Shown in pieces: positions 4,690 to 26,032 of a stretch of DNA of 31,371 nt (its first letter is position 1; the number at the start of each line of letters is the position of its first letter). The DNA is from a virus: IMG/VR virus record IMGVR_UViG_3300036943_000185; one strand, given 5' to 3'. A program made the translations under genes and the position numbers. Under the pieces are notes generated by a model that worked only from the letters and a program-made list of their open reading frames with translations, ran no database searches and had not been told where the DNA came from.

Positions 4690-4845
4690 ATGGGAAGAAG
4701 CACGTTATTTAAGTACAATGTACATGAAGAAAACGTTAATAGGAAACGTTATGAAATGCTTAAACAAGCGGATGAACAACAGTGTTCGAGACTGTCTGAA
4801 CAACGACAGTCCTTAATGGAACTTCAACATAACTTCTAGAAGTGA
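4690..4845 (+). CDS. Small hypothetical protein ending TAG-AAG-TGA
   Basis: MGRSTLFKY...LQHNF then TAG (4837-4839), AAG, TGA; a backup stop lies two codons after the TAG. Confidence 0.5.
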
Positions 4846-4850
4846 TAGCA

Positions 4851-5000
4851 ATGTCTAAGTATTGTCCAGCATGTATTGAGTGTACCGATTGTGATACACT
4901 TTTATGTGCTATATCAATGCGTAAATGTGAACACACTACTGGAACATGTAAGATTTGGCATGATAGTAAATTGAAATATCGTAAGCAGAATAGTGGGTGA
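4851..5000 (+). CDS. Small Cys-rich protein (49 aa)
   Basis: MSKYCPACIECTDCDTLLCAISMRKCEHTTGTC... Confidence 0.55.
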   Translation: MSKYCPACIECTDCDTLLCAISMRKCEHTTGTCKIWHDSKLKYRKQNSG

Positions 5001-5006
5001 TTAATT

Positions 5007-5174
5007 ATGAGATTAATAAGCAATGAAATGAGTTGGGTTGAACTATTGGTGTTTTTTATAATATCCGTAGTAATCTACATTTTATTCTATGGTATCATAA
5101 TATCTGGAATAATAATATTTGTAGGTTGGGTACTTGGTATTGATGTTATTGAGTTGGTGATGCAATGGCGTTAA
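5007..5174 (+). CDS. Small membrane protein (55 aa)
   Basis: Long hydrophobic stretch LLVFFIISVVIYILFYGIIISGIIIFVGWVLGI; GGTGA RBS. Confidence 0.6.
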   Translation: MRLISNEMSWVELLVFFIISVVIYILFYGIIISGIIIFVGWVLGIDVIELVMQWR

Positions 5175-5431
5175 CACATAATGATAGCATATCGTTTGCT
5201 ATAAAAGGTAACATTGGTTACGTGTACAGTGATAGAAGTAAGTATGGTAGCGATACACCTATTGCTACATATCCAAATTGTCGTAACATTGATGATGTAG
5301 CAAACAGATTTTATGAATACGACAAACGTACATTATGTATGGGACAGGAAGATATGCAGAAAGTTCGGCATAATAATTACAATGTGACTACATTGATTGA
5401 TGAATTGAATAAGAAGTACAACATGAGATGA
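5165..5431 (+). CDS. Hypothetical protein
   Basis: 88 aa, GGTGA RBS, part of the operon-like run. Confidence 0.7.
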   Translation: MALTHNDSISFAIKGNIGYVYSDRSKYGSDTPIATYPNCRNIDDVANRFYEYDKRTLCMGQEDMQKVRHNNYNVTTLIDELNKKYNMR

Positions 5432-5435
5432 TAAT

Positions 5436-5738
5436 ATGATGATTGAAATTTCAGAGCAAGACATTAAAGAAATCATACGTAACAACATGAAAGATGACAT
5501 TGAATTAATCATAGAAGAAGAAATGTATGAGGATGCTATCAGGAATGCAGTTAGGAAAGCGTTGATTGAACACATCAAATCAGATGAAGGACAAGAACAG
5601 ATTAAGAAATCATTCAAAGAATATTACATAGATGACGGTATTTGGACAGAATGTGATGATGTATATGAAGCAGTTAATGAAAGAATGGCAAAAATTGTTG
5701 AGAATATGTTTGACCAAGTGAAACTTGTACAGAAATAA
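5436..5738 (+). CDS. Helical hypothetical protein
   Basis: 100-aa ORF in the operon-like run. Confidence 0.7.
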   Translation: MMIEISEQDIKEIIRNNMKDDIELIIEEEMYEDAIRNAVRKALIEHIKSDEGQEQIKKSFKEYYIDDGIWTECDDVYEAVNERMAKIVENMFDQVKLVQK

Positions 5739-5750
5739 AGGTGATTAAAC

Positions 5751-6068
5751 ATGGATGAAGATGGATTCAGAGATTACATAACAGACAGAATGTCATTGAT
5801 ATTACGTAATAATTATGAAGTACAACAAGGGATAATCAATTCATTTAGGGAAGGTGATATAACATCACCTGATGACTTGCAATGTTACATTGAAACAACA
5901 TATTTTATAAACGAAATCAAACGTGATTATGGACAATATGTATACATCATTGATAAAGATGTGTACAGTCAGATTGACATGGACTATGTTGATTTTGCAG
6001 TTATATACGATGAATTCATGGAATATATAAAAGAGTTTGATGAGCAAGAAATTTCATTGTACGCCTAA
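5751..6068 (+). CDS. Acidic hypothetical protein
   Basis: 105 aa, AGGTGA RBS. Confidence 0.7.
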   Translation: MDEDGFRDYITDRMSLILRNNYEVQQGIINSFREGDITSPDDLQCYIETTYFINEIKRDYGQYVYIIDKDVYSQIDMDYVDFAVIYDEFMEYIKEFDEQEISLYA

Positions 6069-6221
6069 TGGAGGTGGAACAGGCAGAATTCAGAGGGGAA
6101 CAGAACTATGCGAAACAAAGGAACAGTGTGTAAAAAAAATCAAAGAAAAAGAAAAGGAAACTAATAATGAACAAACAAGGAATTGATGGATAGACTTTCT
6201 AAAACATGAGGATTTGATAAA

Positions 6222-6527
6222 ATGAACGATGATGATAGAAACAAACTGATAACTAAAAGTCAGTATTAGCATAGGATGAATAGACGTGCAGCAGATGAAG
6301 TGGGTGATTATGAAAGGTTTATGTACATTCGTGATACTGGATTGATGACTACACAGCATGACATAAATGAACAAGCAAGCGAAAATCCAAGTATAGTACG
6401 ATTACATTTAAATCCAGGGTTATGGTTTCCAATATGGGAAAACGGTGAGTACATCGGACAAGTAGCAATGAGTGAATACGAAATGTTTGGTAAAGGACAA
6501 TTGAGATTGGATGATTACCAGAATTAA
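6222..6527 (+). CDS. Hypothetical protein with probable in-frame TAG at codon 16
   Basis: ATG 6222 (GAGGA upstream) reads MNDDDRNKLITKSQY-TAG(6267)-HR and continues in frame into the track ORF 6276-6527, whose ATG lacks a properly spaced RBS. Confidence 0.55.
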
Positions 6528-6628
6528 TCATCATCTCTTTTATTTTTGTGAAAGGTATGTATGCATTGATTTTAGCACAGTTAATGCCAATGTATGCTAC
6601 CCATAAGAACTAAAGGAGAAATGAACAA

Positions 6629-6886
6629 ATGGCAACAGAAATTAGAGTAGGTATGGGTAACGAGAGAGAATTTGTAAACATGGATGAACTCAAAGAAGAA
6701 CTTGACAGAGTTGATGTAACATATGGCGATGTCATCTATGCAGCATTTGATGTAACTGCTGATTCAGTCAATACAAATCATGGTGTAAAGAATACATCTG
6801 ATATTGTATCTGATGAAACAGTAGCGGTGATGGTATCAGCACCTAAATCTGGTGGTGGTATGTCCACAAATGTTCACATGGTATAA
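6629..6886 (+). CDS. Ubiquitin-like (beta-grasp) protein precursor with G75-G76-G77 and a C-terminal extension
   Basis: 85 aa; beta-beta-alpha-beta pattern; ends ...SDETVAVMVSAPKSGG-GMSTNVHMV; strong AAAGGAG RBS; lies directly upstream of the E2, JAB and E1 genes. Confidence 0.7.
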   Translation: MATEIRVGMGNEREFVNMDELKEELDRVDVTYGDVIYAAFDVTADSVNTNHGVKNTSDIVSDETVAVMVSAPKSGGGMSTNVHMV

Positions 6887-6889
6887 ATA

Positions 6890-6924
6890 AAATGTGGGTA
6901 TAATTACCCACATTTAATATTTTT
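6890..6924 (+). terminator. Perfect 11-bp hairpin plus T-tract between the Ubl and E2 genes
   Basis: AAATGTGGGTA-TAAT-TACCCACATTT followed by AATATTTTT. Confidence 0.6.
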
Positions 6925-6940
6925 AAATGGAGATGATTAA

Positions 6941-7846
6941 ATGAAATTGGTAATTGATACGTTATGCACATATCATTTTGAAGATGATGATGGCAATGTC
7001 ATCGACAAAAAACAAATGCAAATGAACATACCCGAAAAGGATTTCAAACGTGAAGGACATGGTTCACTTGAAATTGAAATTAAAGTAGATTTCTATGAAT
7101 TATGTGATGAATTACAAATGCTTGATTTCGTGAATAGTGTTGATTATAATTTAGAGGATAAATGTTTTGAAATATATTGTACTGGAATTGAAGATGTACA
7201 TGAAGAACATGATGCATATGATTCAGATTGTAATATCAATATTGTTCCATATAAGGTATGCTTATTTGATGGTGGGCAATTATTAGTATTACCAACTGAT
7301 GGATTAAATTGTGGGTTTCATAGTGTACATCCAAACATAAGTAGTGATGGTGATATATGTTGGGGTGGTTCGTTTGGTATCATTGATGATTACGTAGAAA
7401 GCGGTGATATAATTATGTTTATGTTATCGTTACGTGATTTCATGAGCAAATGGTCAGCAGAAAATCCATTTTATAATCCAGTAAGTGTAAATCCATGTAG
7501 TCACTGTACACATGATGGATGCTTTGAGTTGTTATGTTGGTGCAGAGATTGTGCTGATTTCGATAGTTTCACATGTGTTGAGTGTAATCGTAGAGCAACT
7601 GTTGATATACCTTGGGCTAAATCAGAGATACATGATGTAGAAGAACGCTATGAAGGGCAATTGGATGATATACTTAATGACTTCAATTGCACAGATGGAG
7701 TAATTTGCCATGATACATACAACAAAACCATCGTGTTTGATGCAACGATTATGAACATAGTTGATTGGTTAGTAAACATAAATAAAAATGAAGTTGAATT
7801 ACATGAAGATGTACGTAATTTGATGGAAACACTTGAATTAATATAA
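6941..7846 (+). CDS. E2/UBC-like conjugating enzyme with C-terminal 8-Cys domain
   Basis: HPNISSDGDICWG matches the UBC HPN(I/V)xxxGxIC motif (Cys140); Cys at 186, 189, 194, 199, 201, 204, 212 and 215. Confidence 0.8.
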   Translation: MKLVIDTLCTYHFEDDDGNVIDKKQMQMNIPEKDFKREGHGSLEIEIKVDFYELCDELQMLDFVNSVDYNLEDKCFEIYCTGIEDVHEEHDAYDSDCNINIVPYKVCLFDGGQLLVLPTDGLNCGFHSVHPNISSDGDICWGGSFGIIDDYVESGDIIMFMLSLRDFMSKWSAENPFYNPVSVNPCSHCTHDGCFELLCWCRDCADFDSFTCVECNRRATVDIPWAKSEIHDVEERYEGQLDDILNDFNCTDGVICHDTYNKTIVFDATIMNIVDWLVNINKNEVELHEDVRNLMETLELI

Positions 7847-8629
7847 ATGGAGATGAATAAAATGGAAGTAGGAATATATATACCAAGAGATGTATGGACA
7901 GATATATGGACAATGATTAGTGTATGTAAACTTGAAGTAGGTGCACTAATGAGTTGTAGCATTGATAAAGATAATGGTATGATTACCGTAGATGAAATAT
8001 TTATACCATCACAGGAAGTAACTGGTGGTACATGTGATTTCGATAAGAACCAAGATGAAGGACTGTATGGTACAGATGATATATTAACGGAAGCGTTGAT
8101 GAGAGATGTTCATGTACCAATAAATGGTTGGGTACATAGCCATGTTAATATGAATACAAACTTTAGTTCAATCGATGATGACAACATTGAGAAATGGTTG
8201 GATTACAATAATGATTATTACGTTAGTATATGCGTAAATAAAAAGAAAGAAATTACTGGTAGAGTTGATATGCTGGTAGACACACCATTCACGTCTGAAC
8301 CTGAACATGTAACGATAGATGATGTAAATATCATGGTTGAAGAATGGTACAGTCCAAAAGTTATGGATTGGTTAAATACAGAAGGTGTGATACGTGAGAA
8401 GAAGTTTACTTACAAAAAGAAAGGTAAAAGTAAAGTTACAACTGTAACGTATAACAACGTTGAGTTGACATCAAGTAACAAACGTGAAGTACTTGAATGG
8501 GATGGTGTACAAGCACAATCAATGACAGATAAACAAATTGATGCATATTGGGATAAGCATAATTATAGTGAAGAAGATTACGATGAATATATTGAAAGTT
8601 TCGTTGAAATGTATTCACAGTTCAGGTGA
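7847..8629 (+). CDS. JAB/JAMM (MPN+) metalloprotease
   Basis: N-terminal Glu (KLEVGAL) and an exact HxHx7Sx2D motif, HSHVNMNTNFSSID (H97, H99, S107, D110). Confidence 0.9.
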   Translation: MEMNKMEVGIYIPRDVWTDIWTMISVCKLEVGALMSCSIDKDNGMITVDEIFIPSQEVTGGTCDFDKNQDEGLYGTDDILTEALMRDVHVPINGWVHSHVNMNTNFSSIDDDNIEKWLDYNNDYYVSICVNKKKEITGRVDMLVDTPFTSEPEHVTIDDVNIMVEEWYSPKVMDWLNTEGVIREKKFTYKKKGKSKVTTVTYNNVELTSSNKREVLEWDGVQAQSMTDKQIDAYWDKHNYSEEDYDEYIESFVEMYSQFR

Positions 8630-9210
8630 TTACAATGGATGATGTAATGGAACAATTCTTTCAATACCAGATAAGAGATGCTAAGAGTTATGCTAAAGCA
8701 TCTGCATTCACACATTCCGGTAGCAAATATACACCATGTGAACTGTTCAGTCCATGTATACACACCGATTGTTTAAATGGACTACAAACATATGGTTTTG
8801 ACATTGATACAAGATTGAAAGTGATATTTATTGGGTATAAAAATAATCTATCAACAGAGAATGGGTACATGGATATTGATTCTGATTACTTTAACCAATA
8901 TCCATTTAAATCAATTAATAGAAATTCGTTTAAAATGGGTGATATTATTGGTAATCCATTGATAAAATTCACATACAATAACTGTATTGATTTTATGGTT
9001 AAGACTGGTTCATCTATATTTGAATTCGATGTGTATCACTCATTTGATGTGAGTAAAGTATTCAATAGTATTTACAACAACAGAACAAAGGTAACACTTG
9101 ATGTAATGAAAGAATTATGTTACAGAATGACAGATTTTGTAGTGTTGAGTAACATACTTGAGGATAAGATTACAGGTGCATATAACATACTTGATAACAT
9201 GGAGGATTAA
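8626..9210 (+). CDS. Hypothetical protein within the Ubl cassette
   Basis: 194 aa; overlaps the JAB stop (GTGA); alternative ATG at 8635. Confidence 0.7.
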   Translation: MITMDDVMEQFFQYQIRDAKSYAKASAFTHSGSKYTPCELFSPCIHTDCLNGLQTYGFDIDTRLKVIFIGYKNNLSTENGYMDIDSDYFNQYPFKSINRNSFKMGDIIGNPLIKFTYNNCIDFMVKTGSSIFEFDVYHSFDVSKVFNSIYNNRTKVTLDVMKELCYRMTDFVVLSNILEDKITGAYNILDNMED

Positions 9211-9524
9211 TGATGGTAGTTGAAATAAACAGTGTTGATATAGATATGTCGTATTCAAATAATGATATGGCTGAGTTTCAGAATAACTACTTAGGCAAAC
9301 GATGTATAGGTAAGATAGGTGGTAACCCATTCAGAACAGGTGAATTCAATAAACTTGTTGAAATAGAACCAACAGAGATGACATCTGATGGTAAGTTTGT
9401 TAAAGCACGAATAAATGATTGTTTGCCAACATGGTTGAATTATTATGGTACAAATAAGGGTGGATTACACACTATCTTTGGAGACCATGTTGGTCTGTTT
9501 CATATAATTGAAGAAATAAAATGA
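9210..9524 (+). CDS. Hypothetical protein within the Ubl cassette
   Basis: 104 aa; TAATG overlap with the upstream gene. Confidence 0.7.
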   Translation: MMVVEINSVDIDMSYSNNDMAEFQNNYLGKRCIGKIGGNPFRTGEFNKLVEIEPTEMTSDGKFVKARINDCLPTWLNYYGTNKGGLHTIFGDHVGLFHIIEEIK

Positions 9525-9533
9525 AGTGATAAC

Positions 9534-10211
9534 ATGACAAACATAGAATATACACGACAAATGGAATGGTTTAATCCAGATAAGTATAGTGATACGAATG
9601 TTGCAGTAGTTGGTTGTGGTGGCATAGGTTCATTTTTGGTACTATACCTTGCACAAATGGGTATTAAGAATATCACGGTATATGATGATGATAAAGTTGA
9701 AGCACATAACCTACCTAACCAGAACTTTGATTTGAGACATATTGGTATGTTTAAGGTATGTGCTATGCAAGAAATTGTGAGAGAACGTACTGGTATCAAA
9801 ATCAATGCAGTTAATAAACGTGTAGGTAAGGATACAAAGTTTGATTGTGATGTATTGATGTTAGGTACAGATACCATTAGCAGTAGGGAGATGTGTCTAC
9901 GTAATGCTAAAAGTAGTGATGTGAAATGTATTATCGATGGTAGATTAGGTGGTCAATACTACCAAGTGTTTACGGTTGATATGCATAATTCTGATGAAGT
10001 ATACAAGTATCAACAATACTTCTTCCCACAATCTGAACAGGAACAACCAAGATGTACAGCAAAAGCAATTATATATATTGCATTGGATATTACATCTGAT
10101 ATGATTAGACATATGAGAGCATGGTTAATGGATTATGAATATCCTATTGTATATGAAGTTAACAGAGAACATAATGAGATAACAGCAGATGGAAACGTAT
10201 TTGTGTATTGA
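9534..10211 (+). CDS. E1/ThiF-MoeB family ubiquitin-like activating adenylyltransferase
   Basis: VAVVGCGGIGS, YDDDKVEAHNLPNQ, FKV, LGTD and IDGRLGG motifs; candidate thioester Cys174 (QPRCTAK); no CxxC Zn pairs. Confidence 0.92.
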   Translation: MTNIEYTRQMEWFNPDKYSDTNVAVVGCGGIGSFLVLYLAQMGIKNITVYDDDKVEAHNLPNQNFDLRHIGMFKVCAMQEIVRERTGIKINAVNKRVGKDTKFDCDVLMLGTDTISSREMCLRNAKSSDVKCIIDGRLGGQYYQVFTVDMHNSDEVYKYQQYFFPQSEQEQPRCTAKAIIYIALDITSDMIRHMRAWLMDYEYPIVYEVNREHNEITADGNVFVY

Positions 10212-10222
10212 GGTGATGAATA

Positions 10223-10378
10223 ATGGGTAAAGATGTATATTTAGATAGTCAGACTATTAACATACTCAAAGACTATGGATGTGATGATGATGGATTTGGA
10301 TGTAACGATGCTATAAAACAAATGAAGCAAGAGTTAGATAATCTGAAAGACAATAGAGGATATTACACAAGTGCATAA
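10223..10378 (+). CDS. Small protein, possibly ribbon-helix-helix-like (51 aa)
   Basis: MGKDVYLDSQTINILKDYG...NDAIKQMKQEL; GAGGTGA RBS. Confidence 0.5.
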   Translation: MGKDVYLDSQTINILKDYGCDDDGFGCNDAIKQMKQELDNLKDNRGYYTSA

Positions 10379-10401
10379 ATATTTTACAATAGAGGTATAA
10401 T

Positions 10402-11280
10402 ATGAGATATAAATACATAAAGATGAATCATTTGGATGATTTTGTACATGTTGATGACCATTCGGTGTTTGAAATAACAGAAAAAGTCGATGGTGCAAAT
10501 ATGTCATTCATGCTGGATGACGATGGTAACATTGTTTTTAGAAGTAGGAATAGAGTTATTACCAATTGGGATGACAAAATGTTTAGAGATGCTATCGGAT
10601 ATGTTCTGAACAAAGTAAACATGGATAAGATGTCACCAAATGAAATTTACTTTGGTGAATGTATGGTCAAACACACAATTGATTATGGAACTGTGAATCC
10701 ATTTCTGGCATTTGGTGTATTTAATAAAACAACTGAACATTATATGCATGATTGGAGACAGATATTCAAAAAAATTGGCATAAATGAATGTGTTAATGAT
10801 ATAGGTAATGTTCCAGCAATCGATTTAAATATTGATTTTATTAAATCATTGGCTAATAACAAAAGTGCACATGGTACAATAGGTGTAAATATGGAAGGTA
10901 TTGTTTTAAAGGATTATGACACACAAACATTCCTTAAATATGTAACACCTAAATTTAAAGAGAAAAACAAAGAAGTTTTTGGTGATAACAACCAAAAAAT
11001 GACAACAAGTGAGAAGATTGTTTATAATTACGTAACCGATGCACGTATAAACAAATCAATTTATGGATTGATAGAAGATGGTGAATTTGATACATTCTGT
11101 ATGGAGATGATGACACAACTTCCTAAACGTGTAAATAGAGATATGTGGGAAGAATGTAGTTATGAGATAATAAGTAAGTATAGCAAAATAGATAATAAGG
11201 ATATACATAAATTAACTTCAAAGAAGTGTGCAAGTAGATTACAAGATTTTATTATCGAATGGAAACTCAATAATCTCTGA
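10402..11280 (+). CDS. ATP-dependent RNA ligase, Rnl2 family
   Basis: Motifs I (EKVDGAN), Ia (RSRN), III (YFGE), IIIa (FLAFGV), IV (EGIVLK) and V (LKYVTPKFKE), plus a C-terminal YVTDARI segment. Confidence 0.85.
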   Translation: MRYKYIKMNHLDDFVHVDDHSVFEITEKVDGANMSFMLDDDGNIVFRSRNRVITNWDDKMFRDAIGYVLNKVNMDKMSPNEIYFGECMVKHTIDYGTVNPFLAFGVFNKTTEHYMHDWRQIFKKIGINECVNDIGNVPAIDLNIDFIKSLANNKSAHGTIGVNMEGIVLKDYDTQTFLKYVTPKFKEKNKEVFGDNNQKMTTSEKIVYNYVTDARINKSIYGLIEDGEFDTFCMEMMTQLPKRVNRDMWEECSYEIISKYSKIDNKDIHKLTSKKCASRLQDFIIEWKLNNL

Positions 11281-11300
11281 GGATTGTTCAGAATCGATTG

Positions 11301-11364
11301 TGTGAAGACTTTGTGTGTTATAGGCACTATCAGTCGTGTAACATGCCAAAGTCTTCACAGTGAG
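11301..11364. repeat. 13-bp perfect inverted repeat; right arm duplicated at 29179-29196
   Basis: TGTGAAGACTTTG (11301-11313) / CAAAGTCTTCACA (11347-11359); 11347-11364 is the exact reverse complement of 29179-29196. Confidence 0.75.
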
Positions 11365-11393
11365 GCTATATGACGTTATTAGAGGTAATTAAT

Positions 11394-11675
11394 ATGAAAT
11401 TAATGACAATAAATAAAGATGATGACATTGATTTAATCAATCAGGCTAATATTTTAGATATACTGGTCAATAATGGGTATATTGATACAGATAAAAATAT
11501 AATAGAGCCGTTTGAAATACATGTTAAAAAACCAACGGAAAGAAAACAGAGATATTGCTATGACTGTGGTTATAAATTTAGTAAAGGTGAACGTTCAGTT
11601 CCAATGCTTAAATGCATTGGTGATAGATATATAGATATAAACTATTGTAAAGAATGTTATGAACAGTTGCATTAA
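11394..11675 (+). CDS. Zn-ribbon protein
   Basis: CYDC...CKEC; ATG 11394 follows GAGGTAA. Confidence 0.65.
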   Translation: MKLMTINKDDDIDLINQANILDILVNNGYIDTDKNIIEPFEIHVKKPTERKQRYCYDCGYKFSKGERSVPMLKCIGDRYIDINYCKECYEQLH

Positions 11676-11701
11676 CCAAAGACTTGGCAGAGGTAATTGA
11701 T

Positions 11702-12447: not shown

Positions 12448-12461
12448 ATGGAGATAATACA

Positions 12462-12590: not shown

Positions 12591-12592
12591 CA

Positions 12593-12911: not shown

Positions 12912-12994
12912 ATGGGTGTAGCAAAGTGGTCAAATGCGTATGGCTTAAGACCATATCTGGTAGCAGTTCATGGGTTCGACTCCCATCACCCATA
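12912..12994 (+). tRNA. trnL: tRNA-Leu(UAA), no encoded CCA, no intron
   Basis: Acceptor ATGGGTG/CACCCAT + discriminator A; D arm GCA..TGG..TGC; anticodon arm TATGG-CTTAAGA-CCATA; variable arm CTG-GTAG-CAG; T arm ATGGG-TTCGACT-CCCAT. Confidence 0.93.
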
Positions 12995-15943: not shown

Positions 15944-16390
15944 ATGGGATACGGTGAGTCTGATGTAGTTGATGCGTTGAATAATTATTTTGATAGTAAT
16001 TGTATCAATGCATTATCATATCGACATAAACAGGGTAGGTTTACTGACCAATGGTGTGACATTAATGTTGATAGTAGTGATAACCGATGGTATCTTGCAT
16101 TAGAGATAAAAAGCAAACGTGGTAAACGTGCTTTGAATTTCAACAACGATTTCACTACCAACAAAGATGGTGTACACCAGTTACAGAGATTAATTGATTA
16201 TTCTATGTTAACAGGTAGAAATCCAATGATAATAGTCTTTTGTAGAATGGGTAGAGGTAGACCAAACCAGATTTATACATTCGATGCATTGGACTTATGG
16301 ACACTCTGGAATAGCGGTAGTAAATCACTTAAGGCTAAAGAATACGATGAATATAACATAAGTTATTTTGATGAGGTGGAGTTCAAGTGA
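15944..16390 (+). CDS. PD-(D/E)XK nuclease, Holliday junction resolvase (Hjc/RecU-like), paralog 1
   Basis: GESDV...CDINVD...LALEIKSK...HQLQRL. Confidence 0.75.
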   Translation: MGYGESDVVDALNNYFDSNCINALSYRHKQGRFTDQWCDINVDSSDNRWYLALEIKSKRGKRALNFNNDFTTNKDGVHQLQRLIDYSMLTGRNPMIIVFCRMGRGRPNQIYTFDALDLWTLWNSGSKSLKAKEYDEYNISYFDEVEFK

Positions 16391-16394: not shown

Positions 16395-17393
16395 ATGGCA
16401 TTGATGTTTGAGTTATCTGATGATTGTATTAAGTTATCAGATAACAAACTAAACATGTTATACAAACATTTTGTTAATCGTTATGATGACTATGCTATAC
16501 AACAGGACAACGGTTCGTATCGTAGGTCAGACAGACCGTTGGATACTTACACACTACTTCAACACTTATCAGGTGAAATCACGATAGGTTCATACCAAAT
16601 AAGTTTAGACGGTAAGGTTAAGTGGATATGTCTTGATATAGACCATCATAACGATGAACAAAATGAGACAGATGTAGAGTTAGATACGTTAACAATCATT
16701 ACAAAACTTGAAGCGTTAGGTATAGATTACATATGTGAATCGTCTGGTTCAAGTGTGTCTAAACATATCTGGATATTCATGGATAACGTTAACGTATCAG
16801 ATGCATACAGTTTCGGTAGGGAAATAATAGGTGATACAGAGTGTGAAGTGTATCCTAAACAGAAGAAGTTAAGTGATGTTAAACCATACGGTAATTTAGT
16901 TAAGTTACCATTTGGTAAGAATAAGAAGAACGATAACTGGTCACATATCGTAACAAGTTCAGGTGATTGTATACATAAACTTAAGTTAGACAGATACATA
17001 CCGAGTGTGTACAAACGTAAGTGTAAGAGTGTCACAAAGCACTCTTCGAACTGTCTGAACATAGGTTGTTCTAATGGTGTACTACCGCTTACAATGAGAC
17101 CATGTTTAAAGAAAGTTTAGACTGGTGATATTAGTGCAGTCGGTACAGGTGGACATAACTTAAGATGTGCATTAGTACCTGAACTACGTGATTGTTGTGG
17201 TATGACTGAATCAGACATATTAAGTGTGTTTATGAATCAAATGGATTTTGATATTGAAGCAACCAGACGCAATGTTAAATCATTGATTCATTATAATAGG
17301 TATAGTTGTAGTAGAATTTTAGCAGAGTCTAAAAATATAGTAGAAGATATTTGTAAAGGATGTGTATTGAATGAAGACAAGAATCGATATTGA
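16395..17393 (+). CDS. Fused AEP primase (PriS-like) + PriL Fe-S domain, with in-frame TAG at 17118-17120
   Basis: AEP motifs CLDIDH, SSGSSVSKHIW, EVYPKQ and GNLVKLP. After RPCLKKV-TAG the frame stays open for 90 codons (TGDISAVGTGGHNLR...DFDIEATR...YSCSRI...ICKGC) and joins track ORF 17202-17393. Confidence 0.8.
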
Positions 17394-18077: not shown

Positions 18078-18080
18078 ATA

Positions 18081-18519: not shown

Positions 18520-18520
18520 T

Positions 18521-18682: not shown

Positions 18683-19101
18683 TTAATATGGGAAAGACAC
18701 CTAAGTACGCAAGAGAGAAAATGATTGAATTGATGAAAGACACAAGAGCACAGCAACGATGTGATTTAGTAAGGGAATTACTCAATGAACTCAAAGAAAA
18801 CAATAAAGATGTGTATGATGAGCGTGATGGTGTAACTAAAGAACTATCTGATGTACGTGAACAACTAAGTAAACTACGTAAGAAGGAACGTGAACTTGAG
18901 CGTAAGGAATCTGAAATTGGAAATAAGATAACGAAGGTGAAAAGAGAAGCACAATTGTATATAACATCACCATCTGAGTCAGGCACATGTAGAGCAGGTC
19001 ATCTACATCCAAAACTTGAGGAATTTGATATAGAAACAAAGAGAATTGAGATACAGATATTGACTGATGAAGAAGTTGATAAAAGTATCATTGGGTTGTA
19101 A
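18679..19101 (+). CDS. Coiled-coil protein
   Basis: Heptad-like K/E/R-rich central region; likely ATG at 18688. Confidence 0.65.
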   Translation: MINMGKTPKYAREKMIELMKDTRAQQRCDLVRELLNELKENNKDVYDERDGVTKELSDVREQLSKLRKKERELERKESEIGNKITKVKREAQLYITSPSESGTCRAGHLHPKLEEFDIETKRIEIQILTDEEVDKSIIGL

Positions 19102-19148
19102 CCACAACCCTATACCTTTTAGGGTCAAAAATGGGTAGAAACGCATAG

Positions 19149-19421
19149 GTGATATATATGAGAGTGTATATAGACAATACACAAGACGATGAAGACAATA
19201 AGTGGATAGGTAAAACAATTCGTATCGATGAAAGATTTTGTAAACATAACAATGTACCACATGTAAACAAAGTAATGTTGATAGAAGAAATACGAGGTGC
19301 AATAATATTAAGGTTTGTTGATGCAATGGGTATATGTCCACCAGTAGATGTTACGATACCTAACGATAGGTTTGAAATATTGAAGACGGATAATATGAGT
19401 CTGGATAGATATGAACAGTAA
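19149..19421 (+). CDS. Hypothetical protein
   Basis: 90 aa, AGGTGA RBS. Confidence 0.6.
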   Translation: MIYMRVYIDNTQDDEDNKWIGKTIRIDERFCKHNNVPHVNKVMLIEEIRGAIILRFVDAMGICPPVDVTIPNDRFEILKTDNMSLDRYEQ

Positions 19422-19995
19422 AACCAAACGTATTCAGAGACGTAGGTTGAACAGACAGGAAAAGAAAAATAATATTAGTAATGTTGATGTAGGTGAACAG
19501 TTTGAATGGTTCATGACAGAATATTTTAATGAGTATATGGATACATATAGTTTGAATGGACTTGCTTACATGTATCCAATACATCCTAACTATACACAAA
19601 AGATTGATGTGTTGATTGATAATTTTGATTCGATGTTTATAGGTATTGAATGTAAGAGTGTATATGAAGATGGACACCCACTTCATAATAAATGCAATCA
19701 CTTTAGAAACACAAGATTTTATTTCAGTAAGTTGTTTCGCATCAATAAAAATGGTGAATCACAATTACATAGACAACATCAATTTTTGGTATGCACAGAT
19801 AGACGTGGTTTGATTGCATTTGAGTTTAGATGTATGGATGAAGTGTTTTTAGTACCACATCAAATAGTTTATGATAAGTGGAAATCAGGCAACAAGTTTA
19901 TTACATCGTAGGACATAATAACAAATGCTTATCAAATTGGAAGTAAAGGCAGTTTAGTTAAGTTTATATCGAATAAATGTGAGGTAACAAAATGA
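19411..19995 (+). CDS. PD-(D/E)XK nuclease (Hjc/RecU-like), paralog 2, with in-frame TAG at 19909-19911
   Basis: QFEWF...IDVLID...IGIECKSV...SQLHRQ. After the TAG, 27 sense codons lead to a TGA that overlaps the next ATG (ATGA at 19992). Confidence 0.7.
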
Positions 19996-20150
19996 AATTA
20001 ATTAAGTTTATTGTTAATGGAGATGAGGTAAAATATTTTGAATTGTTCGGTAGATACATATTGGTAGGAAAGTCAGGTGATAGTCTAAGCAAAATGTTAA
20101 AAGATATGCCAACAGAAGTCAATCACATGATAAAGATATGTGATGATTAA
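19992..20150 (+). CDS. Small hypothetical protein (52 aa)
   Basis: MKLIKFIVNGDEVKYFEL...; GAGGTAA RBS. Confidence 0.55.
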   Translation: MKLIKFIVNGDEVKYFELFGRYILVGKSGDSLSKMLKDMPTEVNHMIKICDD

Positions 20151-20151
20151 T

Positions 20152-20262
20152 ATGATTGATATTCAAAATCCACTTTGGGGTGTTATTGTAGCGGTTGTTT
20201 ATATAGCAACAAATGTATTGGCATCAAAGTTAGCAGAACGGAGAAACAGTGATGAACAATGA
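20152..20262 (+). CDS. Small single-TM protein (36 aa)
   Basis: MIDIQNPLWGVIVAVVYIATNVLASKLAERR...; ATGA overlap with the next gene. Confidence 0.5.
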   Translation: MIDIQNPLWGVIVAVVYIATNVLASKLAERRNSDEQ

Positions 20263-20441
20263 AAGGACAGAAGTATTATGCAAAGGGCATAGTTGAACAT
20301 GTAGTAGACCCATTGAACGAAGATATGTTAGTAGATGCATTCATCGATGATTATGAAAGAGATGATGTTATTGCTAATATATGTAAACATTTACCAATAG
20401 GAACGAAAGTAAAGATAACAATAGAGGTATTAGATGATTGA
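20259..20441 (+). CDS. Hypothetical protein
   Basis: 60-aa ORF overlapping both neighbours. Confidence 0.6.
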   Translation: MKGQKYYAKGIVEHVVDPLNEDMLVDAFIDDYERDDVIANICKHLPIGTKVKITIEVLDD

Positions 20442-21066
20442 GATAAAAAGACCATCGATACCGTCTGCTTACGAAGCGTTATGGAAACGTGTGTGGCATT
20501 ACGGTAAGAAGGACATAGACGAACGTGGTGACGCTGTAAGAGTGCTACACTACGTATGGGTCGAGATAACCTCAGATGACCTCACATATCCGTCTGTGTG
20601 CTATGTAAATGAAGCAATAGGTGATTCGTTCGTAGACGGATTAACCGATTCAGACCTGTCACGGTGTGTTGGTTATGAGTTTGATTATGGTTATGGCGAT
20701 AGGTTACGTCAGAAATATGCACTTGCAACAGTTGTTGAGATGTTAAGAGAGAACCATAAGACCAGACGTGGGTGCATACCAATAACAGAATCAAACGATT
20801 TACGTGCATCACACATGTATAACATTGAGATACCGTGTGCTACACAGGTAGAGTTCGAGGTTGTCGATGATAAGTTAGATATGGTATTACATATGCGTAG
20901 TAATGATGTACTTAACGCATTTCCTTCGGATGTCTACGGATTCAGACATTTACAAATGATGGTATGTGATTACACTGGTATACCAATTGGTAACTACTAT
21001 CAGTATATAAAGAATGCACATATAATAGAACATGCAGCACAAGATTGGATAGAGGAACATTTATGA
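20434..21066 (+). CDS. thyA: Thymidylate synthase / dCMP hydroxymethylase family protein (archaeal ThyA-like)
   Basis: YGYGDRL, TRRG, IPC (catalytic Cys135), MRSNDVLNAFPSD and NAHI motifs. Confidence 0.85.
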   Translation: MIEIKRPSIPSAYEALWKRVWHYGKKDIDERGDAVRVLHYVWVEITSDDLTYPSVCYVNEAIGDSFVDGLTDSDLSRCVGYEFDYGYGDRLRQKYALATVVEMLRENHKTRRGCIPITESNDLRASHMYNIEIPCATQVEFEVVDDKLDMVLHMRSNDVLNAFPSDVYGFRHLQMMVCDYTGIPIGNYYQYIKNAHIIEHAAQDWIEEHL

Positions 21067-21206
21067 ACAATGAAGACATAGTAATAAAGGTAATCAGAGA
21101 AGAAACTAAAGAGGAACTAAGACAGATTATGATATTGGAAAATTTAAATTCATTTGATGAATGTATAAATTTCCTTGCAGACAAATATCATAATAAGGAG
21201 ATGTAA
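21063..21206 (+). CDS. Small ribbon-helix-helix-like DNA-binding protein (47 aa)
   Basis: IKVIREETKEELRQIM...SFDECINFL, a pattern typical of small archaeal RHH/antitoxin-like proteins. Confidence 0.55.
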   Translation: MNNEDIVIKVIREETKEELRQIMILENLNSFDECINFLADKYHNKEM

Positions 21207-21208
21207 TA

Positions 21209-21514
21209 ATGGATGTAATAGGCAATATGATACACTTTAAGAGTGACCCGATGAACTTTAAGAAAGAATTGATAGGTGTCAAACGTAATACTGTTAGAAT
21301 AATGAAACTATCAGAAAGGTTTAAGTTATATGAACTCATTGAGTCACATGAACATGACATTTGTATAGATGAGAAAACAGGATTACTTGAAGTTAATAGT
21401 GATGCATATATAACGATACACAACAGTGAAACAGGTGAATATTTCACAAGAAAACTTAAGGATATATCTACGTTGGATACAGGTATGAACACAGTATTTA
21501 TATTTTCATGGTGA
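21209..21514 (+). CDS. ASCH/PUA-like domain protein
   Basis: FKSDP..F..E..GVKRNTVR and a ITIHNSETGEYFTR pattern. Confidence 0.6.
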   Translation: MDVIGNMIHFKSDPMNFKKELIGVKRNTVRIMKLSERFKLYELIESHEHDICIDEKTGLLEVNSDAYITIHNSETGEYFTRKLKDISTLDTGMNTVFIFSW

Positions 21515-21519
21515 ATTTT

Positions 21520-21648
21520 ATGGAAGAAGATTATGAGTTATGGAAATCTATAAGTAAATTGAGAACAATGTCACATACAGAGAAGTGGCAGTTTTATCGT
21601 AGTATGATTAGAAACAGTGAGTTACATAGACGATTGGAGAGTAAATAA
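21520..21648 (+). CDS. Small hypothetical protein (42 aa)
   Basis: MEEDYELWKSISKLR...; GGTGA RBS. Confidence 0.5.
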   Translation: MEEDYELWKSISKLRTMSHTEKWQFYRSMIRNSELHRRLESK

Positions 21649-21765
21649 ATGATAGAAAACTTTTGGATAACATTTTGGTATACGTTTGGTATAGGTATGG
21701 GAATAGCAGCCGTAATGGTAGTGTATGGATTGATAGGTGCAATAGCAACTTTGATAAGCAGGTGA
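21649..21765 (+). CDS. Small membrane protein (38 aa)
   Basis: MIENFWITFWYTFGIGMGIAAVMVVYGLIGAIATLISR. Confidence 0.5.
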   Translation: MIENFWITFWYTFGIGMGIAAVMVVYGLIGAIATLISR

Positions 21766-21769
21766 TAAT

Positions 21770-22117
21770 ATGAACAGACAAGAAAAAATATTCCTATTGG
21801 ATAGGATACTTCATGATATACGTGGTGATTGGTCGGAGTTTAGTGATTTAGAATGGAGAGTGCGAAAAGCACGAGAACTCGCATACGAACTTGAACTTGA
21901 TACACATGTTGAAAGAATTGATATGTACAACAAAGAACGAGTGGAAACAGGAGATAACGATGGTCGGGTATTTCGTGCACATTATATATACGGTGGATAT
22001 GGAGGTATGAGTGAATTGCACGGAATGAATTACAGTAAAGAAGGCAAATCAGAAGAACTTATAGAGGAAATATATAACGTATGCTCTCATCCAGATATGA
22101 TGTTTGTGGATTCGTGA
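21770..22117 (+). CDS. Hypothetical protein
   Basis: 115 aa, AGGTGA RBS. Confidence 0.7.
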   Translation: MNRQEKIFLLDRILHDIRGDWSEFSDLEWRVRKARELAYELELDTHVERIDMYNKERVETGDNDGRVFRAHYIYGGYGGMSELHGMNYSKEGKSEELIEEIYNVCSHPDMMFVDS

Positions 22118-22129
22118 TAGGTGATATAA

Positions 22130-22333
22130 ATGAGAACTGTTGATACAACATTAATGAAAAGATTACTCGATTGTTTATGTGTAGATAAATTAGATATTAA
22201 AACGGATGGTGATAGTATATGTGTAACAGAACCAGATTTTATAAACCTTGAATTATCTCATGCTGGGTTTGGTGATACAATAGACGAAGCAATAAATGAT
22301 TTGATAGATAGAATTTATGAGGATGTGATATAA
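22130..22333 (+). CDS. Small protein with HicB-like N-terminal fold pattern
   Basis: DGDSICV...F...SHAGFGDTIDEAINDL resembles the G.T..EA motif. Confidence 0.45.
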   Translation: MRTVDTTLMKRLLDCLCVDKLDIKTDGDSICVTEPDFINLELSHAGFGDTIDEAINDLIDRIYEDVI

Positions 22334-22492
22334 ATGATAGATATATATTGTGATGATGAAGATTGTGAAGGTAAATGCAGAGTAGTAGGTGTACTTAATG
22401 TTAAAGAAGATGGCAAAATGAGATGTCTTGTACAGTGTAACGAATGTATGAATGTTTACACACGTAAAGGATTTACAAGTGACTTGAGGTGA
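22334..22492 (+). CDS. Small Zn-ribbon protein (52 aa)
   Basis: YCDDEDC...QCNEC. Confidence 0.55.
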   Translation: MIDIYCDDEDCEGKCRVVGVLNVKEDGKMRCLVQCNECMNVYTRKGFTSDLR

Positions 22493-22499
22493 TTTGAGA

Positions 22500-22952
22500 A
22501 TGCAGATATATGATATAGGATATAAAATAGTAGATGATGACGCAGTTAAACCTTACTACGACCATGTAGGTGACAGTGGATTTCCATTGATTTCAGTTGA
22601 AGATGATTTCATAATAGAACCAGAAGATATAGCATTGGTAGATACTGGAATACAGTTTGATATACCGGAAGGTTTAGAATTGTGTGTACGTTCACGTTCT
22701 GGAATGACTAAGAAACATGGCATCGTAGTAGCACAAGGTGTAGGTACAGTAGACCAGAATTATCGTGGTAACGTATTTGTATTACTCTATAACATATCTG
22801 ATTTACCAATGACTATAAATAAAGGTATGAAGATAGCACAGGGTATATGGAATGAGTTGCCAGATGTTGTATTCCATGAAGTAGATGAGTTATCTGAGAC
22901 AAGTCGTGGTTCAGACGCACTCAACAGTACAGGGTATTACAAACGTGAGTAA
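22500..22952 (+). CDS. dut: Trimeric dUTPase
   Basis: DSGFPL, RSRSG, GTVDQNYRG, KIAQ and RGSDALNSTG correspond to motifs 1-5. Confidence 0.9.
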   Translation: MQIYDIGYKIVDDDAVKPYYDHVGDSGFPLISVEDDFIIEPEDIALVDTGIQFDIPEGLELCVRSRSGMTKKHGIVVAQGVGTVDQNYRGNVFVLLYNISDLPMTINKGMKIAQGIWNELPDVVFHEVDELSETSRGSDALNSTGYYKRE

Positions 22953-22988
22953 TACCTTACTTTATTTATTTTTAATAGGTGATATTTA

Positions 22989-25253
22989 ATGAAAGCAGAA
23001 GATTATTTTGATAGTCAGTTAGGTATAGATATTTGGAATAACAAATACCGACAGAACAATGAATCATTCGATGAATGGTTAGATAGAGTTAGCGGTGGTA
23101 ACGAAAGTGTACGTATGCTAATCGAACAAAAGAAGTTCATGTTCGGTGGTAGAATACTTGCTAACAGAGGTATCACTGATAGAAATGTAAGTTTAAGCAA
23201 TTGTTATTATATGGATATACCAGATGATTCAATTGATGCAATATATGAAACATCACGTAAGTTAGCAAAAACATTTAGTTGGGGTGGTGGAGTAGGTATT
23301 GACATGAGTGTACTTGCACCAAGAGGGGCTAAAATAAATAATGCTGCTAATGAAACAACTGGTGCTGTATCGTTTATGAGTACATTTAATGAAGTAGCAA
23401 AAACTATTGGTGCTGAAGGTAGACGTGCAGCACTGTTGATGTCGTTGAAATCTGAACATCCAGATTTAGAAGAATTTATTACATGTAAATCAGAAGATGG
23501 TAAAATAAGTGGTGCTAACATTAGCATACAAGCATCTGATGATTTCATGTCAAGTATATATAATGAAGGTTCATATGAATTATCATATACCAGACACAAC
23601 GGTGATACAACATCCAAAGTAATTGATAGTACAAGAGTATTTAGAACATTTTCTGAAAACAATTGGAATTGGTCAGAACCGGGTATGCAATTCATTGACA
23701 GAATGCGTAGTTGGGGATTACTTAGTGAATATAATGATTACATAATCAATGGAACAAATGCTTGTAATGAACTCACTTTACCTGACGGTGGTGCATGTTT
23801 ATTAGGTAGTATTAATTTAGATGAACTTGATGTAAATGGATTATTAAGTGCTGTTCCGCAATGGAATGAGTTAGAGGAAACAGTTGATATAGCAGTTCGT
23901 GGAATGAACGAAGTGTTAATTGAAGCACTTGGGAGACATCCACTTGAATACCAACGTGATGTAGTTAATGATTGGAGACAGATAGGACTGGGTGTATTTG
24001 GATATGCAAGTCTATTAATAAAACTCGGATTGAAGTATGGCAGTCAGGAAGCATTGTTATTCACTGAACATATGTTCAGAAGAATACTGAAACAAGCAGT
24101 TCTAACAAGTGCTGACGTAGCCAGAATAAATGGTTCATTCCCAAAGTTTGACTTAGACAAAACACTTCAATCCAAATTTGTACAAGAGAATTTTGATGAT
24201 GAAATGGTTGATGCTATAACTAAGTATGGTTTAGCAAATGGTTCACTGTTATCAATTGCACCAACTGGTAGCATAAGTACAATGATGGGTCAAACATCGG
24301 GTGGAACTGAACCATACTTTGCATTGAGTTACAATAGAAGAACAGAAAGTCTACACGGTGAAAGAATTGTATATAAGGTTGATTCACCAATTGTGAAGTG
24401 GTACAAAGATAACCATGATGTACCCAAAGAAAACGATGAGTTACCACATTATTTTGTAACCACTATGGATGTTTCGGTTCATGATAGGATAAGAACGCAA
24501 TCAGTAATACAGCAATACATTGATACATCTATAAGCAGTACAATAAACTTACCAAACAGTGCAACAATTGAAGATGTAGAGGAAGTTTATATAAATGGTT
24601 GGATATATGGTCTTAAAGGCATTACTGTTCATAGACAAGGTAATAAACGTGAAGGAATACTTACAGTTGGTGATGCATCTGAAGATAAAGATATAGGTAT
24701 GGAATTAAAACGGGGTGATTGGGAACCAGAGCCAACAGATTTAGCAAGTACTGATAGAGATATTTATACTGGATGTGGTCAAATCAAAATGTTTATCAGA
24801 TATTCGAGAACAAATAACAAAATATTTGATTTTTGGATAAAACGTTCTGGTAAAGGCGGATGTGAACGATCTTTGGATGATATTGCAGTAGCAATGTCTG
24901 GAATGCTTAGACTTGGAGGGAGTATTAACAATATAAAAAAGGCATTTAAAGGTATAGGTGTATGTAACTCATTTAGCAATGCTCGTAAATCTGGACAAAT
25001 TGTCAGCAAAGGAAATAATTGTGGTGACTCTATGTTACGCAAATTACTCGAATTTAAAGAAGATGTTGATAATGATAATCTGGATATTAATGGACATCCT
25101 TTAGAGGACATTGACGGTACTCCATTGAATAAAACACAAAAACAACCACAACCCATAAAAAAAGGCACATTGTGCCCTGAATGTGGTGGTAATATAGCAT
25201 ACGCTGGTGGATGTATAGAATGTCGAACATGTGGTTATAGCAAATGTGATTAA
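22989..25253 (+). CDS. nrdJ: Class II (B12-dependent) ribonucleotide reductase with TSCPD-like and Zn-ribbon C-terminus
   Basis: SLSNC, GGGVG, TNACNE..L...GACLLGSIN, IAPTGSIS, SSTINLP and KGITVHR motifs; C-terminal CPECGG...GCIECRTCGYSKC. Confidence 0.93.
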   Translation: MKAEDYFDSQLGIDIWNNKYRQNNESFDEWLDRVSGGNESVRMLIEQKKFMFGGRILANRGITDRNVSLSNCYYMDIPDDSIDAIYETSRKLAKTFSWGGGVGIDMSVLAPRGAKINNAANETTGAVSFMSTFNEVAKTIGAEGRRAALLMSLKSEHPDLEEFITCKSEDGKISGANISIQASDDFMSSIYNEGSYELSYTRHNGDTTSKVIDSTRVFRTFSENNWNWSEPGMQFIDRMRSWGLLSEYNDYIINGTNACNELTLPDGGACLLGSINLDELDVNGLLSAVPQWNELEETVDIAVRGMNEVLIEALGRHPLEYQRDVVNDWRQIGLGVFGYASLLIKLGLKYGSQEALLFTEHMFRRILKQAVLTSADVARINGSFPKFDLDKTLQSKFVQENFDDEMVDAITKYGLANGSLLSIAPTGSISTMMGQTSGGTEPYFALSYNRRTESLHGERIVYKVDSPIVKWYKDNHDVPKENDELPHYFVTTMDVSVHDRIRTQSVIQQYIDTSISSTINLPNSATIEDVEEVYINGWIYGLKGITVHRQGNKREGILTVGDASEDKDIGMELKRGDWEPEPTDLASTDRDIYTGCGQIKMFIRYSRTNNKIFDFWIKRSGKGGCERSLDDIAVAMSGMLRLGGSINNIKKAFKGIGVCNSFSNARKSGQIVSKGNNCGDSMLRKLLEFKEDVDNDNLDINGHPLEDIDGTPLNKTQKQPQPIKKGTLCPECGGNIAYAGGCIECRTCGYSKCD

Positions 25254-25464
25254 AATGATGAATGGTGATAAATACGAACATACCGGTAGAATGACTGTTG
25301 GACAGTTAAAGAAAGTTCTGGGTGAATATAATGATAATGCGAAAGTAATAATCAGTGCATGTAATTCAAATATGTTAGGAAACGATAGATTTCCAGAACA
25401 TGTCATTGGTCATACTGAATCAGATAGAAAGGGTTATTTAGTATTGGTGACTACAATAAGGTGA
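25231..25464 (+). CDS. Hypothetical protein
   Basis: MTVGQLKKVLGEYNDNAKVII pattern common in viral small proteins; the true start is probably downstream of 25231. Confidence 0.6.
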   Translation: MVIANVIKMMNGDKYEHTGRMTVGQLKKVLGEYNDNAKVIISACNSNMLGNDRFPEHVIGHTESDRKGYLVLVTTIR

Positions 25465-25468
25465 TAAA

Positions 25469-25870
25469 ATGGTAACAAAAACTGAAGTATTGGATAGGCT
25501 CAATCATGTAACGGTTACAGACGATGGATTAGATTCTGATGATTTGGATGTGTTAGCATCCTTCATCAATAATTTATATCTGAATCAAAATACTGATAGT
25601 AGTACATGGGATATTGCAAGAGTATGTGTATCAATGCTTAACTTCCTTATGGTTAAGAACAAACGTTACGGTAACTCAGCGATAGAACCATTGAATGTGT
25701 TTAGTAAACTTGACGCAAACGAGCAGATTAATAATCGTATGGATGATAAGTTAATGAGAATTAAGAATAGCAGTATTGAGCGTAAAAATGATTACGTTGA
25801 CCTGTCTGGATATTTGCTGCTCAAATGTATAGCAAACGATTGGTTAGAATTTGATGACTTATTGGACTGA
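25469..25870 (+). CDS. Nucleotide modification-associated domain 1 (DUF1599/Nmad1-like, all-alpha NTP pyrophosphatase-like)
   Basis: KNKRYGNS...FS...INNRMDDKLMRI...NDYVDLSGYLLL. Confidence 0.65.
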   Translation: MVTKTEVLDRLNHVTVTDDGLDSDDLDVLASFINNLYLNQNTDSSTWDIARVCVSMLNFLMVKNKRYGNSAIEPLNVFSKLDANEQINNRMDDKLMRIKNSSIERKNDYVDLSGYLLLKCIANDWLEFDDLLD

Positions 25871-25876
25871 TTAAAC

Positions 25877-26032
25877 ATGTTTGAAAATAGTTGGATGATG
25901 TATACATTGGTTGATGATGAGTTTGTTGTTACATCGATAACTAAAAACATAGTGTTTAAACAAATATAGACACATGTCTTGATAAATAAATATTATGATG
26001 ATAGATTTGGTGAAGTAAGATGTCCATATTAA
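25877..26032 (+). CDS. Small protein with in-frame TAG at codon 31 (25967-25969)
   Basis: MFENSWMMYTL...VFKQI-TAG-THVLINKYYDDRFGEVRCPY-TAA; the extended form overlaps the next start (26020) like its neighbours. Confidence 0.5.

Follow-up and report, generated by a model that had tools for sequence, protein, structure and literature searches.

In-frame amber codons in two replication genes of a Methanohalophilus virus are probably decoded as pyrrolysine by the host

The virus record IMGVR_UViG_3300036943_000185 of IMG/VR is a stretch of 31,371 nucleotides (nt), which was analyzed over its whole length and is referred to here as the window. Five of its gene frames contain an in-frame amber codon (TAG), and we conclude that in two of them, the gene for a Prim-Pol primase (TAG at position 17118) and the gene for a resolvase-like nuclease (TAG at 19909), this codon is probably decoded as pyrrolysine (Pyl) by the machinery of the host. 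The TAG codons are real and persistent, the sequence that follows them is coding and conserved, the link to the host holds, and the host carries pylTSBCD. The mechanism has been described before in cells and in mobile elements (transposases and a casposon); we found no paper that describes it for the genes of a virus.

Results

TAG codons occur within genes and are rare as terminators

The original prediction, made from the sequence of this stretch without database searches, listed TAG codons within gene frames at 4837, 6267, 17118, 19909 and 25967, and all five were indeed found at these positions on the + strand. The four in-frame continuations that it described were recovered as well, with lengths of 85 codons (6267 to 6527), 90 codons (17118 to 17393), 27 codons (19909 to 19995) and 20 codons (25967 to 26032), while the fifth site, at 4837, reads TAG-AAG-TGA and thus has a TGA two codons on. 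With TAG taken as a sense codon, three of the read-through frames run 23, 4 and 13 nt into the next gene, and the frame of 4837 stops at 4845, just ahead of the next ATG at 4851. In other words, readthrough at any of the five sites gives no long out-of-frame overlap, the maximum being 23 nt.

As a terminator, TAG is rare. In our own gene call, 66 genes on the + strand end in TGA (32), TAA (31) or TAG (3), and each of the four - strand open reading frames (ORFs) that were checked ends in TGA or TAA. Precomputed calls for an identical contig contain 46 genes, with TGA at the end of 24, TAA at the end of 20 and TAG at the end of only 2, these being the primase gene and the resolvase-like gene themselves. 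When the stop triplets that lie out of frame within these genes are counted, TAG accounts for 31% and 14% of them in the two non-coding phases, and finding 3 or fewer TAG stops in 66 genes has a binomial P of 0.013 for p = 0.14 and of 0.0003 for p = 0.20. As a trinucleotide, TAG is not depleted and is frequent in the other two phases, so that its scarcity at gene ends must be attributed to selection rather than to base composition.

Contigs of Logan and JGI assemblies, which come from several other samples, match the window across positions 6371-31371 with an identity of 100% or 99.98% and probably represent a single virus population. The TAGs at 17118, 19909 and 25967 are kept in these separately assembled contigs from several samples, as the original prediction would have it, and this agreement of the bases between separate assemblies makes an assembly artefact very unlikely. 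The sole differences between the window and three other assemblies are found at 30160 (T to A) and 30162 (A to G), in the second or third codon of a - strand gene (29593-30168).

Finally, we folded the 100 nt that follow each TAG and found no stable structure, with z-scores ranging from -1.47 to +0.49. In this respect the viral TAGs differ from Pyl insertion of the mtmB type, in which a stable and conserved stem-loop, the pyrrolysine insertion sequence (PYLIS), lies 3' of the UAG. The lack of structure fits an insertion that is independent of a cis element, and a cis element has been reported to be unneeded for Pyl insertion (PMC12626013).

The primase and the nuclease are conserved across their TAG codons

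It had been proposed that viral genes are read through with Pyl, in which case their homologues should not end at the TAG. This is what we observed for the primase and the nuclease. In the primase, the TAG is residue 251 when counting from the TTG at 16368, and the read-through protein is 341 amino acids (aa) long. The read-through frame matches the Pfam family AEP-TOTE with an E-value of 1e-20, and residues 235-339, a region that runs across the TAG, give a sub-threshold match to PriL (PF04104, the primase large subunit). Four homologues (P0002-P0005, 330-341 aa), which are 39-45% identical over 93-96% of the read-through length, all cross the TAG column; identity is above 30% on both sides of the TAG, for an extension of 90 codons and thus of more than 15 aa. 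Just past the TAG column lies the best conserved block of the family, with the near-invariant motif GTGGHxLRCALVPEL, while the column itself is occupied by V, M, M, A and L in the homologues and never by Gln. No in-frame ATG, GTG or TTG occurs from the primase TAG to this motif, and reinitiation therefore cannot make it.

A second virus, which we call L005, encodes a primase that is 46% identical to that of the window and has a TAG at exactly the aligned column, past which its frame also continues. In the tree, the L005 primase is the sister of the window primase with a support of 98/95. Between the two, protein identity is 54% over the 87 codons after the TAG and 45% before it; the post-TAG part has a nonsynonymous difference (pN) of 0.34 and a synonymous difference (pS) of 0.54, and its other two frames are full of stops. 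Because the sister carries the TAG at the same column, the primase TAG must have survived a long divergence, and the comparison indicates that the sequence downstream has been under purifying selection.

In the AlphaFold (AF2) model of the primase, residues 12-206 form an AEP domain and residues 240-333 a helical C-terminal domain, with a disordered linker (210-237) between them. Residue 251 would lie in the first helix of the C-terminal domain, which is confidently folded. A fold search with the N-terminal domain gave the CAPP Prim-Pol domain (7nqe) as its best match. When the whole model was used as the query, only the N-terminal Prim-Pol domain was named and the C-terminal domain found no match. 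Within the latter domain (17103-17361), we observed that the Cys pattern is largely conserved, with RPC before the TAG and Y-x-C and C-x-x-C after it. Judged by its residues, this pattern fits a metal-binding or Fe-S cluster domain with ligands on both sides of the TAG.

For the nuclease, which resembles Hjc and RecU, the 27 codons past the TAG complete a full-length protein of 194 aa. The extended frame closes with an ATGA, in which its stop overlaps the start of the next gene; this start, the ATG at 19992, has a GAGGT Shine-Dalgarno site. Residues 122-186 match phrog_843 (Holliday junction resolvase) across the TAG. Eleven homologues were aligned (P0018-P0028, 163-194 aa), with identities of 31-58%, the 58% belonging to the best match, and 10 of the 11 cross the TAG column and reach the conserved end GSLxxFIxNKC. 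Here too, identity is above 30% on both sides of the TAG and the extension (27 codons) is longer than 15 aa. The TAG column holds F, V, L, I or M in the homologues and never Gln. A Lys had earlier been noted opposite the nuclease TAG in a paralogue encoded within the window (15944-16390). The two proteins do align in this way, yet they are only 23% identical and we give the residue no weight: the BLAST input had Pyl written as K, which biases the column, and closer homologues are hydrophobic there.

At three small genes, the TAG may be either stop or sense

The original prediction treated the TAG as a sense codon in all five genes. This was borne out for the primase and the nuclease, in which the TAG is demonstrably internal, while the genes with TAGs at 4837, 6267 and 25967 only fit such a reading; identity above 30% on both sides of the TAG was seen for none of these three. 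In the scheme of the Code 34 preprint (10.1101/2024.09.30.615893), they would fall into Categories 2 and 3, with no case of Category 4. The pattern at 4837 corresponds to Category 2, in which stop and sense are indistinguishable, and profile searches with this gene (4690-4845) gave no family match. Searching the related loci with the small TAG-bearing genes using tblastn gave no match either.

The gene with the TAG at 6267 could start upstream or downstream of this codon. The upstream ATG, at 6222, has the better ribosome-binding site, with a GAGGA that is suitably spaced from it; the alternative ATG at 6276 has only an AGG that directly adjoins it. The homologue search for this gene returned only a near-identical relative, which also has the TAG. 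It is located on the small related contig L138 and is 91% identical, with the TAG kept and one in-frame deletion of 3 nt upstream of it. On this sequence comparison, readthrough at 6267 is suggestive only. As a separate observation, the gene call that the depositor made on L138 (ENA contig k141_611832, 442-744) is reproducible only with TAG as Gln, and an automatic choice of the code can therefore mislabel archaeal viruses of this kind as Code 15.

The ORF with the TAG at 25967 has an overlap of 13 nt with the next gene (ATG 26020), and the Shine-Dalgarno-like sequence GGACTGAT lies ahead of its ATG. No homologue was found for it, the only hit being a weak PHROG match (E 0.008).

The virus is linked to a Methanohalophilus-type host that carries the pyl genes

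The salt-loving methanogen Methanohalophilus is methylotrophic, synthesizes pyrrolysine and possesses tRNA-Pyl, an amber suppressor. For the identification of the host, we compared the DNA of the window with 177 genomes of the family Methanosarcinaceae using BLAST, which picked out one genome, G049. All 105 spacers of its two verified CRISPR arrays (with repeats of 37 nt and 30 nt) were then extracted and compared with the window, and about 20 of these spacers match over their whole or nearly whole length, 8 of them without a mismatch (Table 1). The PylS of G049 is identical to a multispecies Methanohalophilus PylS (including M. euhalobius), from which we take the genus, and G049 accordingly appears to be a Methanohalophilus-type genome. 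With several spacers of a genome of this genus matching the window, the spacer record indicates that the virus infects Methanohalophilus.

Contig C7 of G049 contains pylT(CUA), pylS, pylB, pylC and pylD in a row, with pylT directly upstream of pylS, and the encoded proteins score above the curated cut-offs throughout (PylS 367, PylB 521, PylC 442 and PylD 352 bits). The suggestion that the host should be found through CRISPR spacers and should possess these genes was therefore well placed. Among ORFs of at least 200 aa in 300 kb of G049, 107 end in TGA, 91 in TAA and only 5 in TAG (5 of 203), so that the stop-codon bias is common to virus and host.

In the 31-kb window itself, no pyl genes and no tRNA(CUA) were seen, in line with what had been noted before. 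Its sole tRNA is a tRNA-Leu(UAA) at 12912-12994, which is 72-81% identical to tRNA genes of many Methanosarcinaceae genomes. The closest full-length relatives of the primase in genomes come from Methanolobus and other Methanosarcinaceae, one of them from within a Methanolobus contig of 3.4 Mb, and PylS was found in all 4 of the 4 genomes that hold these relatives.

We also considered a further candidate, from the Methanosarcinaceae metagenome-assembled genome G003. Its related contig is 46.7 kb long and has TAG at the end of 8 of 71 ORFs. At 19709-20779 of contig C12 (1713-2780 of locus L137, - strand), an HD-hydrolase gene ends in TAG and is in frame with a DNA methyltransferase gene. Readthrough would yield a fusion of 356 aa, but these are most likely two genes that happen to share a frame, and we set the case aside as uninformative.

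Table 1. Coordinates of the genes and protospacers in the window
Feature	Position	Strand	Remarks
Gene for a Prim-Pol (AEP) primase; C-terminal domain helical, with Cys residues	16371-17393	+	TAG 17118-17120
Resolvase-like (Hjc/RecU-type) nuclease gene	19411-19995	+	TAG 19909-19911, residue 167
Small gene ending in TAG-AAG-TGA	4690-4845	+	TAG 4837; back-up stop two codons on
Small gene of unknown function	6222-6527	+	TAG 6267-6269, codon 16 if the start is ATG 6222
Small ORF of 30 codons, TAG and 20 codons	25877-26032	+	TAG 25967-25969
Class II-like ribonucleotide reductase gene	22989-25253	+	
About 20 protospacers of G049 spacers	170-30120	.	BLAST and spacer matching
Perfect protospacers, examples	2133-2168, 2145-2180, 6954-6990, 7987-8022, 15997-16031, 25434-25469, 30085-30120		
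Protospacer with one mismatch, example	4868-4905		

The window is the replication arm of a larger virus

The window has a G+C content of 32% and carries about 66 close-packed genes on the + strand between 2345 and 29086. Besides the ribonucleotide reductase (Table 1), their products include a thymidylate-synthase homologue, a dCTP deaminase/dUTPase, an RNA ligase, an HD hydrolase, a ThiF-type E1 protein, a C5 DNA methylase, the Prim-Pol primase and two resolvase-like nucleases. A - strand gene at the left end has a weak resemblance to the small terminase subunit. The window is the replication and nucleotide-metabolism arm of a larger virus, which is probably tailed. Exact-protein look-ups for longer contigs led to ends within 84 nt of the right end of the window and to none on its left side. 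Among isolated phages, megablast with 13 kb of the window gave no match, and tblastn with the primase reached only distant Prim-Pol domains.

Most starts on the + strand are preceded, at a distance of 4-8 nt, by the Shine-Dalgarno-like sequence GAGGTGAT or by GGTGAT, and for several ORFs that were called from their first possible start (4681, 4842, 8626 and 18679) the true start is probably an ATG further downstream, behind such a motif. The region 654-2345 (about 1.7 kb) is without any ORF of at least 50 aa under either code, is targeted by several G049 spacers (1539-1576, 2133-2168 and 2145-2180), and may be an origin or control region. In the intergenic gap at 3299-3742, a small ORF that starts with TTG (3383-3523) is 34 aa long if it ends at TAG and 46 aa long with both its TAGs as sense; its status as a gene is uncertain. 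The genes at 6629-10211 had earlier been named a Ubl-E2-JAMM-E1 cassette. Of this assignment, we saw only a precomputed ThiF (E1) Pfam match of the gene at 9534-10211 (which also matches PHROG families of unknown function) and a weak Prok-JAB match of the gene at 7847-8629.

Discussion

Decoding of TAG by the host

We consider it likely that the virus depends on its host for the decoding of these codons. In an infected cell, the Pyl-tRNA(CUA) of the host would compete with the release factor at each UAG. Insertion of Pyl at the TAGs of the primase and the nuclease would give the complete proteins of 341 and 194 aa, and these would be the functional forms, because the homologues are full length. 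None of the suppression machinery would be viral, as far as the window reaches, and the host would supply it. The TAGs at 4837, 6267 and 25967 would be read through as well, the first of them possibly still serving as the end of its gene with the TGA two codons on as a back-up. The virus, like its host, would have nearly abandoned TAG as a terminator in favor of TGA and TAA, its stop usage being adapted to the unreliability of TAG as a terminator in that host. Readthrough would, in addition, need to be efficient enough to supply both enzymes.

Several points weigh against this reading. That the inserted residue is Pyl we infer from the host alone, and the homologue columns under both TAGs are hydrophobic, with nothing in them that favors a derivative of lysine. 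Only 31 kb of the virus is visible, and a suppressor tRNA or a release factor may be encoded elsewhere. At three of the five TAGs (4837, 6267 and 25967) nothing separates stop from sense, and the data are compatible with both. Furthermore, G049 is the genome of an immune cell, which is probably of the same species as the productive host. Lastly, UAG gives both truncated and extended products in Methanosarcina acetivorans (PMC12626013); by analogy, the word "sense" may overstate the case, and truncated isoforms are probably also made.

Alternative explanations

An extension of host-dependent Pyl decoding, and one that does not exclude it, is that the TAGs are selected regulatory switches, which would yield two isoforms through an ambiguous reading of UAG. 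The primase would then exist as a 250-aa Prim-Pol core without the C-terminal domain and as the full enzyme of 341 aa, in a ratio that follows the host's supply of Pyl-tRNA, tying viral replication to the methylamine metabolism of the host. In favor of such a switch, two viruses that share only 46% identity in their primases have both kept a TAG at this column, and the codon is predicted to lie at the start of a separately folded domain, just past a disordered linker. Moreover, a dual reading of UAG as stop and Pyl, with readthrough that depends on the supply of and demand for Pyl, has been reported for M. acetivorans (PMC12626013; PMC13663744). However, shared ancestry alone accounts for the shared TAG, since the two genes are sisters that have kept about half of their residues. 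The TAG is also placed 7 residues within the domain, past the RPC motif and outside the linker; the four nearest other homologues have V, M or A at its column; and no structure was found 3' of it (z-scores of -1.5 to +0.5). We therefore regard such switches as rather unlikely. Somewhat more doubtful still is the specific proposal that the primase amber codon, and perhaps that of the nuclease, is a selected sensor, through which the primase would become competent for priming only when Pyl-tRNA is plentiful in the host. If true, the virus would have turned an ambiguous codon for a 22nd amino acid into a means of regulation, and genome replication would be gated by the methylamine-driven physiology of the host through the ratio of truncated to full-length protein.

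A reassignment of TAG to a standard amino acid, as in phages that use Code 15 (TAG=Gln), would require a suppressor tRNA outside the window, and the window would be an early region in which recoded codons are sparse. Early genes of recoded phages do carry few recoded stops, the genome is only partly visible, the automatic gene caller chose TAG=Gln for the small related contig, and stop-codon recoding has been reported in phages. On the other hand, the archaeal host has its own tRNA-Pyl(CUA), so that an extra tRNA is unneeded, and none with a CUA anticodon is present in the 31 kb. Gln is found at neither TAG column in the homologues (V/M/A/L in the primase and F/V/L/I/M in the nuclease), and the stop-codon bias of the virus copies that of its host. 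Like the original prediction, which had dismissed a wholesale reassignment of TAG to Gln, we reject it, and consider a phage-style reassignment of any kind highly improbable.

Equally improbable is that the TAGs are ordinary stops in truncated or split genes, pseudogenes or misassembled sequence, with downstream frames that are remnants or are translated separately: although the upstream parts form complete domains under the standard code (the AEP core comprises residues 12-206) and the ATG at 17202 could start a peptide of 63 aa, the same bases occur in separately assembled contigs from several samples, the primase is more conserved after the TAG than before it with pN < pS, and the first codon at which translation could restart comes only after its most conserved motif. 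A recent lesion is ruled out by the TAG at the same column in L005. It would also be remarkable if chance had given two such lesions, both of them TAG and neither TAA nor TGA, to a virus whose host decodes TAG.

Relation to known recoding systems

Methanohalophilus is one of eight genera that have been inferred to read all TAG codons as Pyl, a code proposed under the name Genetic Code 34 (Kivenson et al., bioRxiv 10.1101/2024.09.30.615893). In two genera other than Methanohalophilus, Pyl was the only residue that proteomics detected at TAG, and the predicted Pyl proteins include DNA polymerases, helicases and transposases as well as Cas proteins and a casposon (10.1101/2024.09.30.615893). The viral primase and nuclease resemble Category 1 of that study in that the TAG is flanked on both sides by homology to known proteins. 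The rarity of TAG as a terminator, the absence of large out-of-frame overlaps and the listing of Methanohalophilus are further points of agreement. Unlike the cellular genes of Code 34, those described here are viral, no Pyl machinery is present in the visible 31 kb, and all of the decoding would fall to the host. Neither "virus" nor "viral" occurs in the text of the preprint (10.1101/2024.09.30.615893), and our literature search, in which subscription journals were thinly covered, found no paper on viral genes that rely on Pyl decoding.

In M. acetivorans, UAG has been shown experimentally to be both a stop and a Pyl codon in host genes (Shalvarjian et al., PNAS 2025, PMC12626013). No dedicated cis element is involved there, which the absence of structure after the viral TAGs fits, and long and short forms of the same protein are made. 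The ambiguity was measured for another genus in M. acetivorans, whereas for the virus and for Methanohalophilus it would be a prediction from sequence. A likeness to recoded phages (TAG=Gln or TGA=Trp) lies in the misreading of genes under the standard code, by which gene callers truncate or split proteins. Recoded phages often encode suppressor tRNAs and release factors of their own, have a large number of recoded codons and may use another code than their host. The virus described here, by contrast, has very few TAG codons, would have a non-canonical residue at them and keeps to the code of its host.

Implications for viruses of Pyl-decoding methanogens

Standard pipelines would truncate both the primase and the nuclease, and viruses of methanogens that decode Pyl consequently need to be annotated with TAG as a sense codon. 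If our reading is true, a virus whose core replication enzymes need Pyl replicates only in hosts that decode it, and in-frame TAG codons would therefore be a usable marker for host prediction. This bears on virus-host exchange and on the influence that an altered genetic code has on it. In addition, the retention of a TAG through a long divergence would be evidence from nature that Methanohalophilus reads through TAG efficiently enough for essential functions, which is relevant to the debate over full reassignment versus ambiguity of UAG in the Methanosarcinaceae. Methanohalophilus is a main methane producer in hypersaline and fractured-shale systems, and its viruses matter there for that reason.

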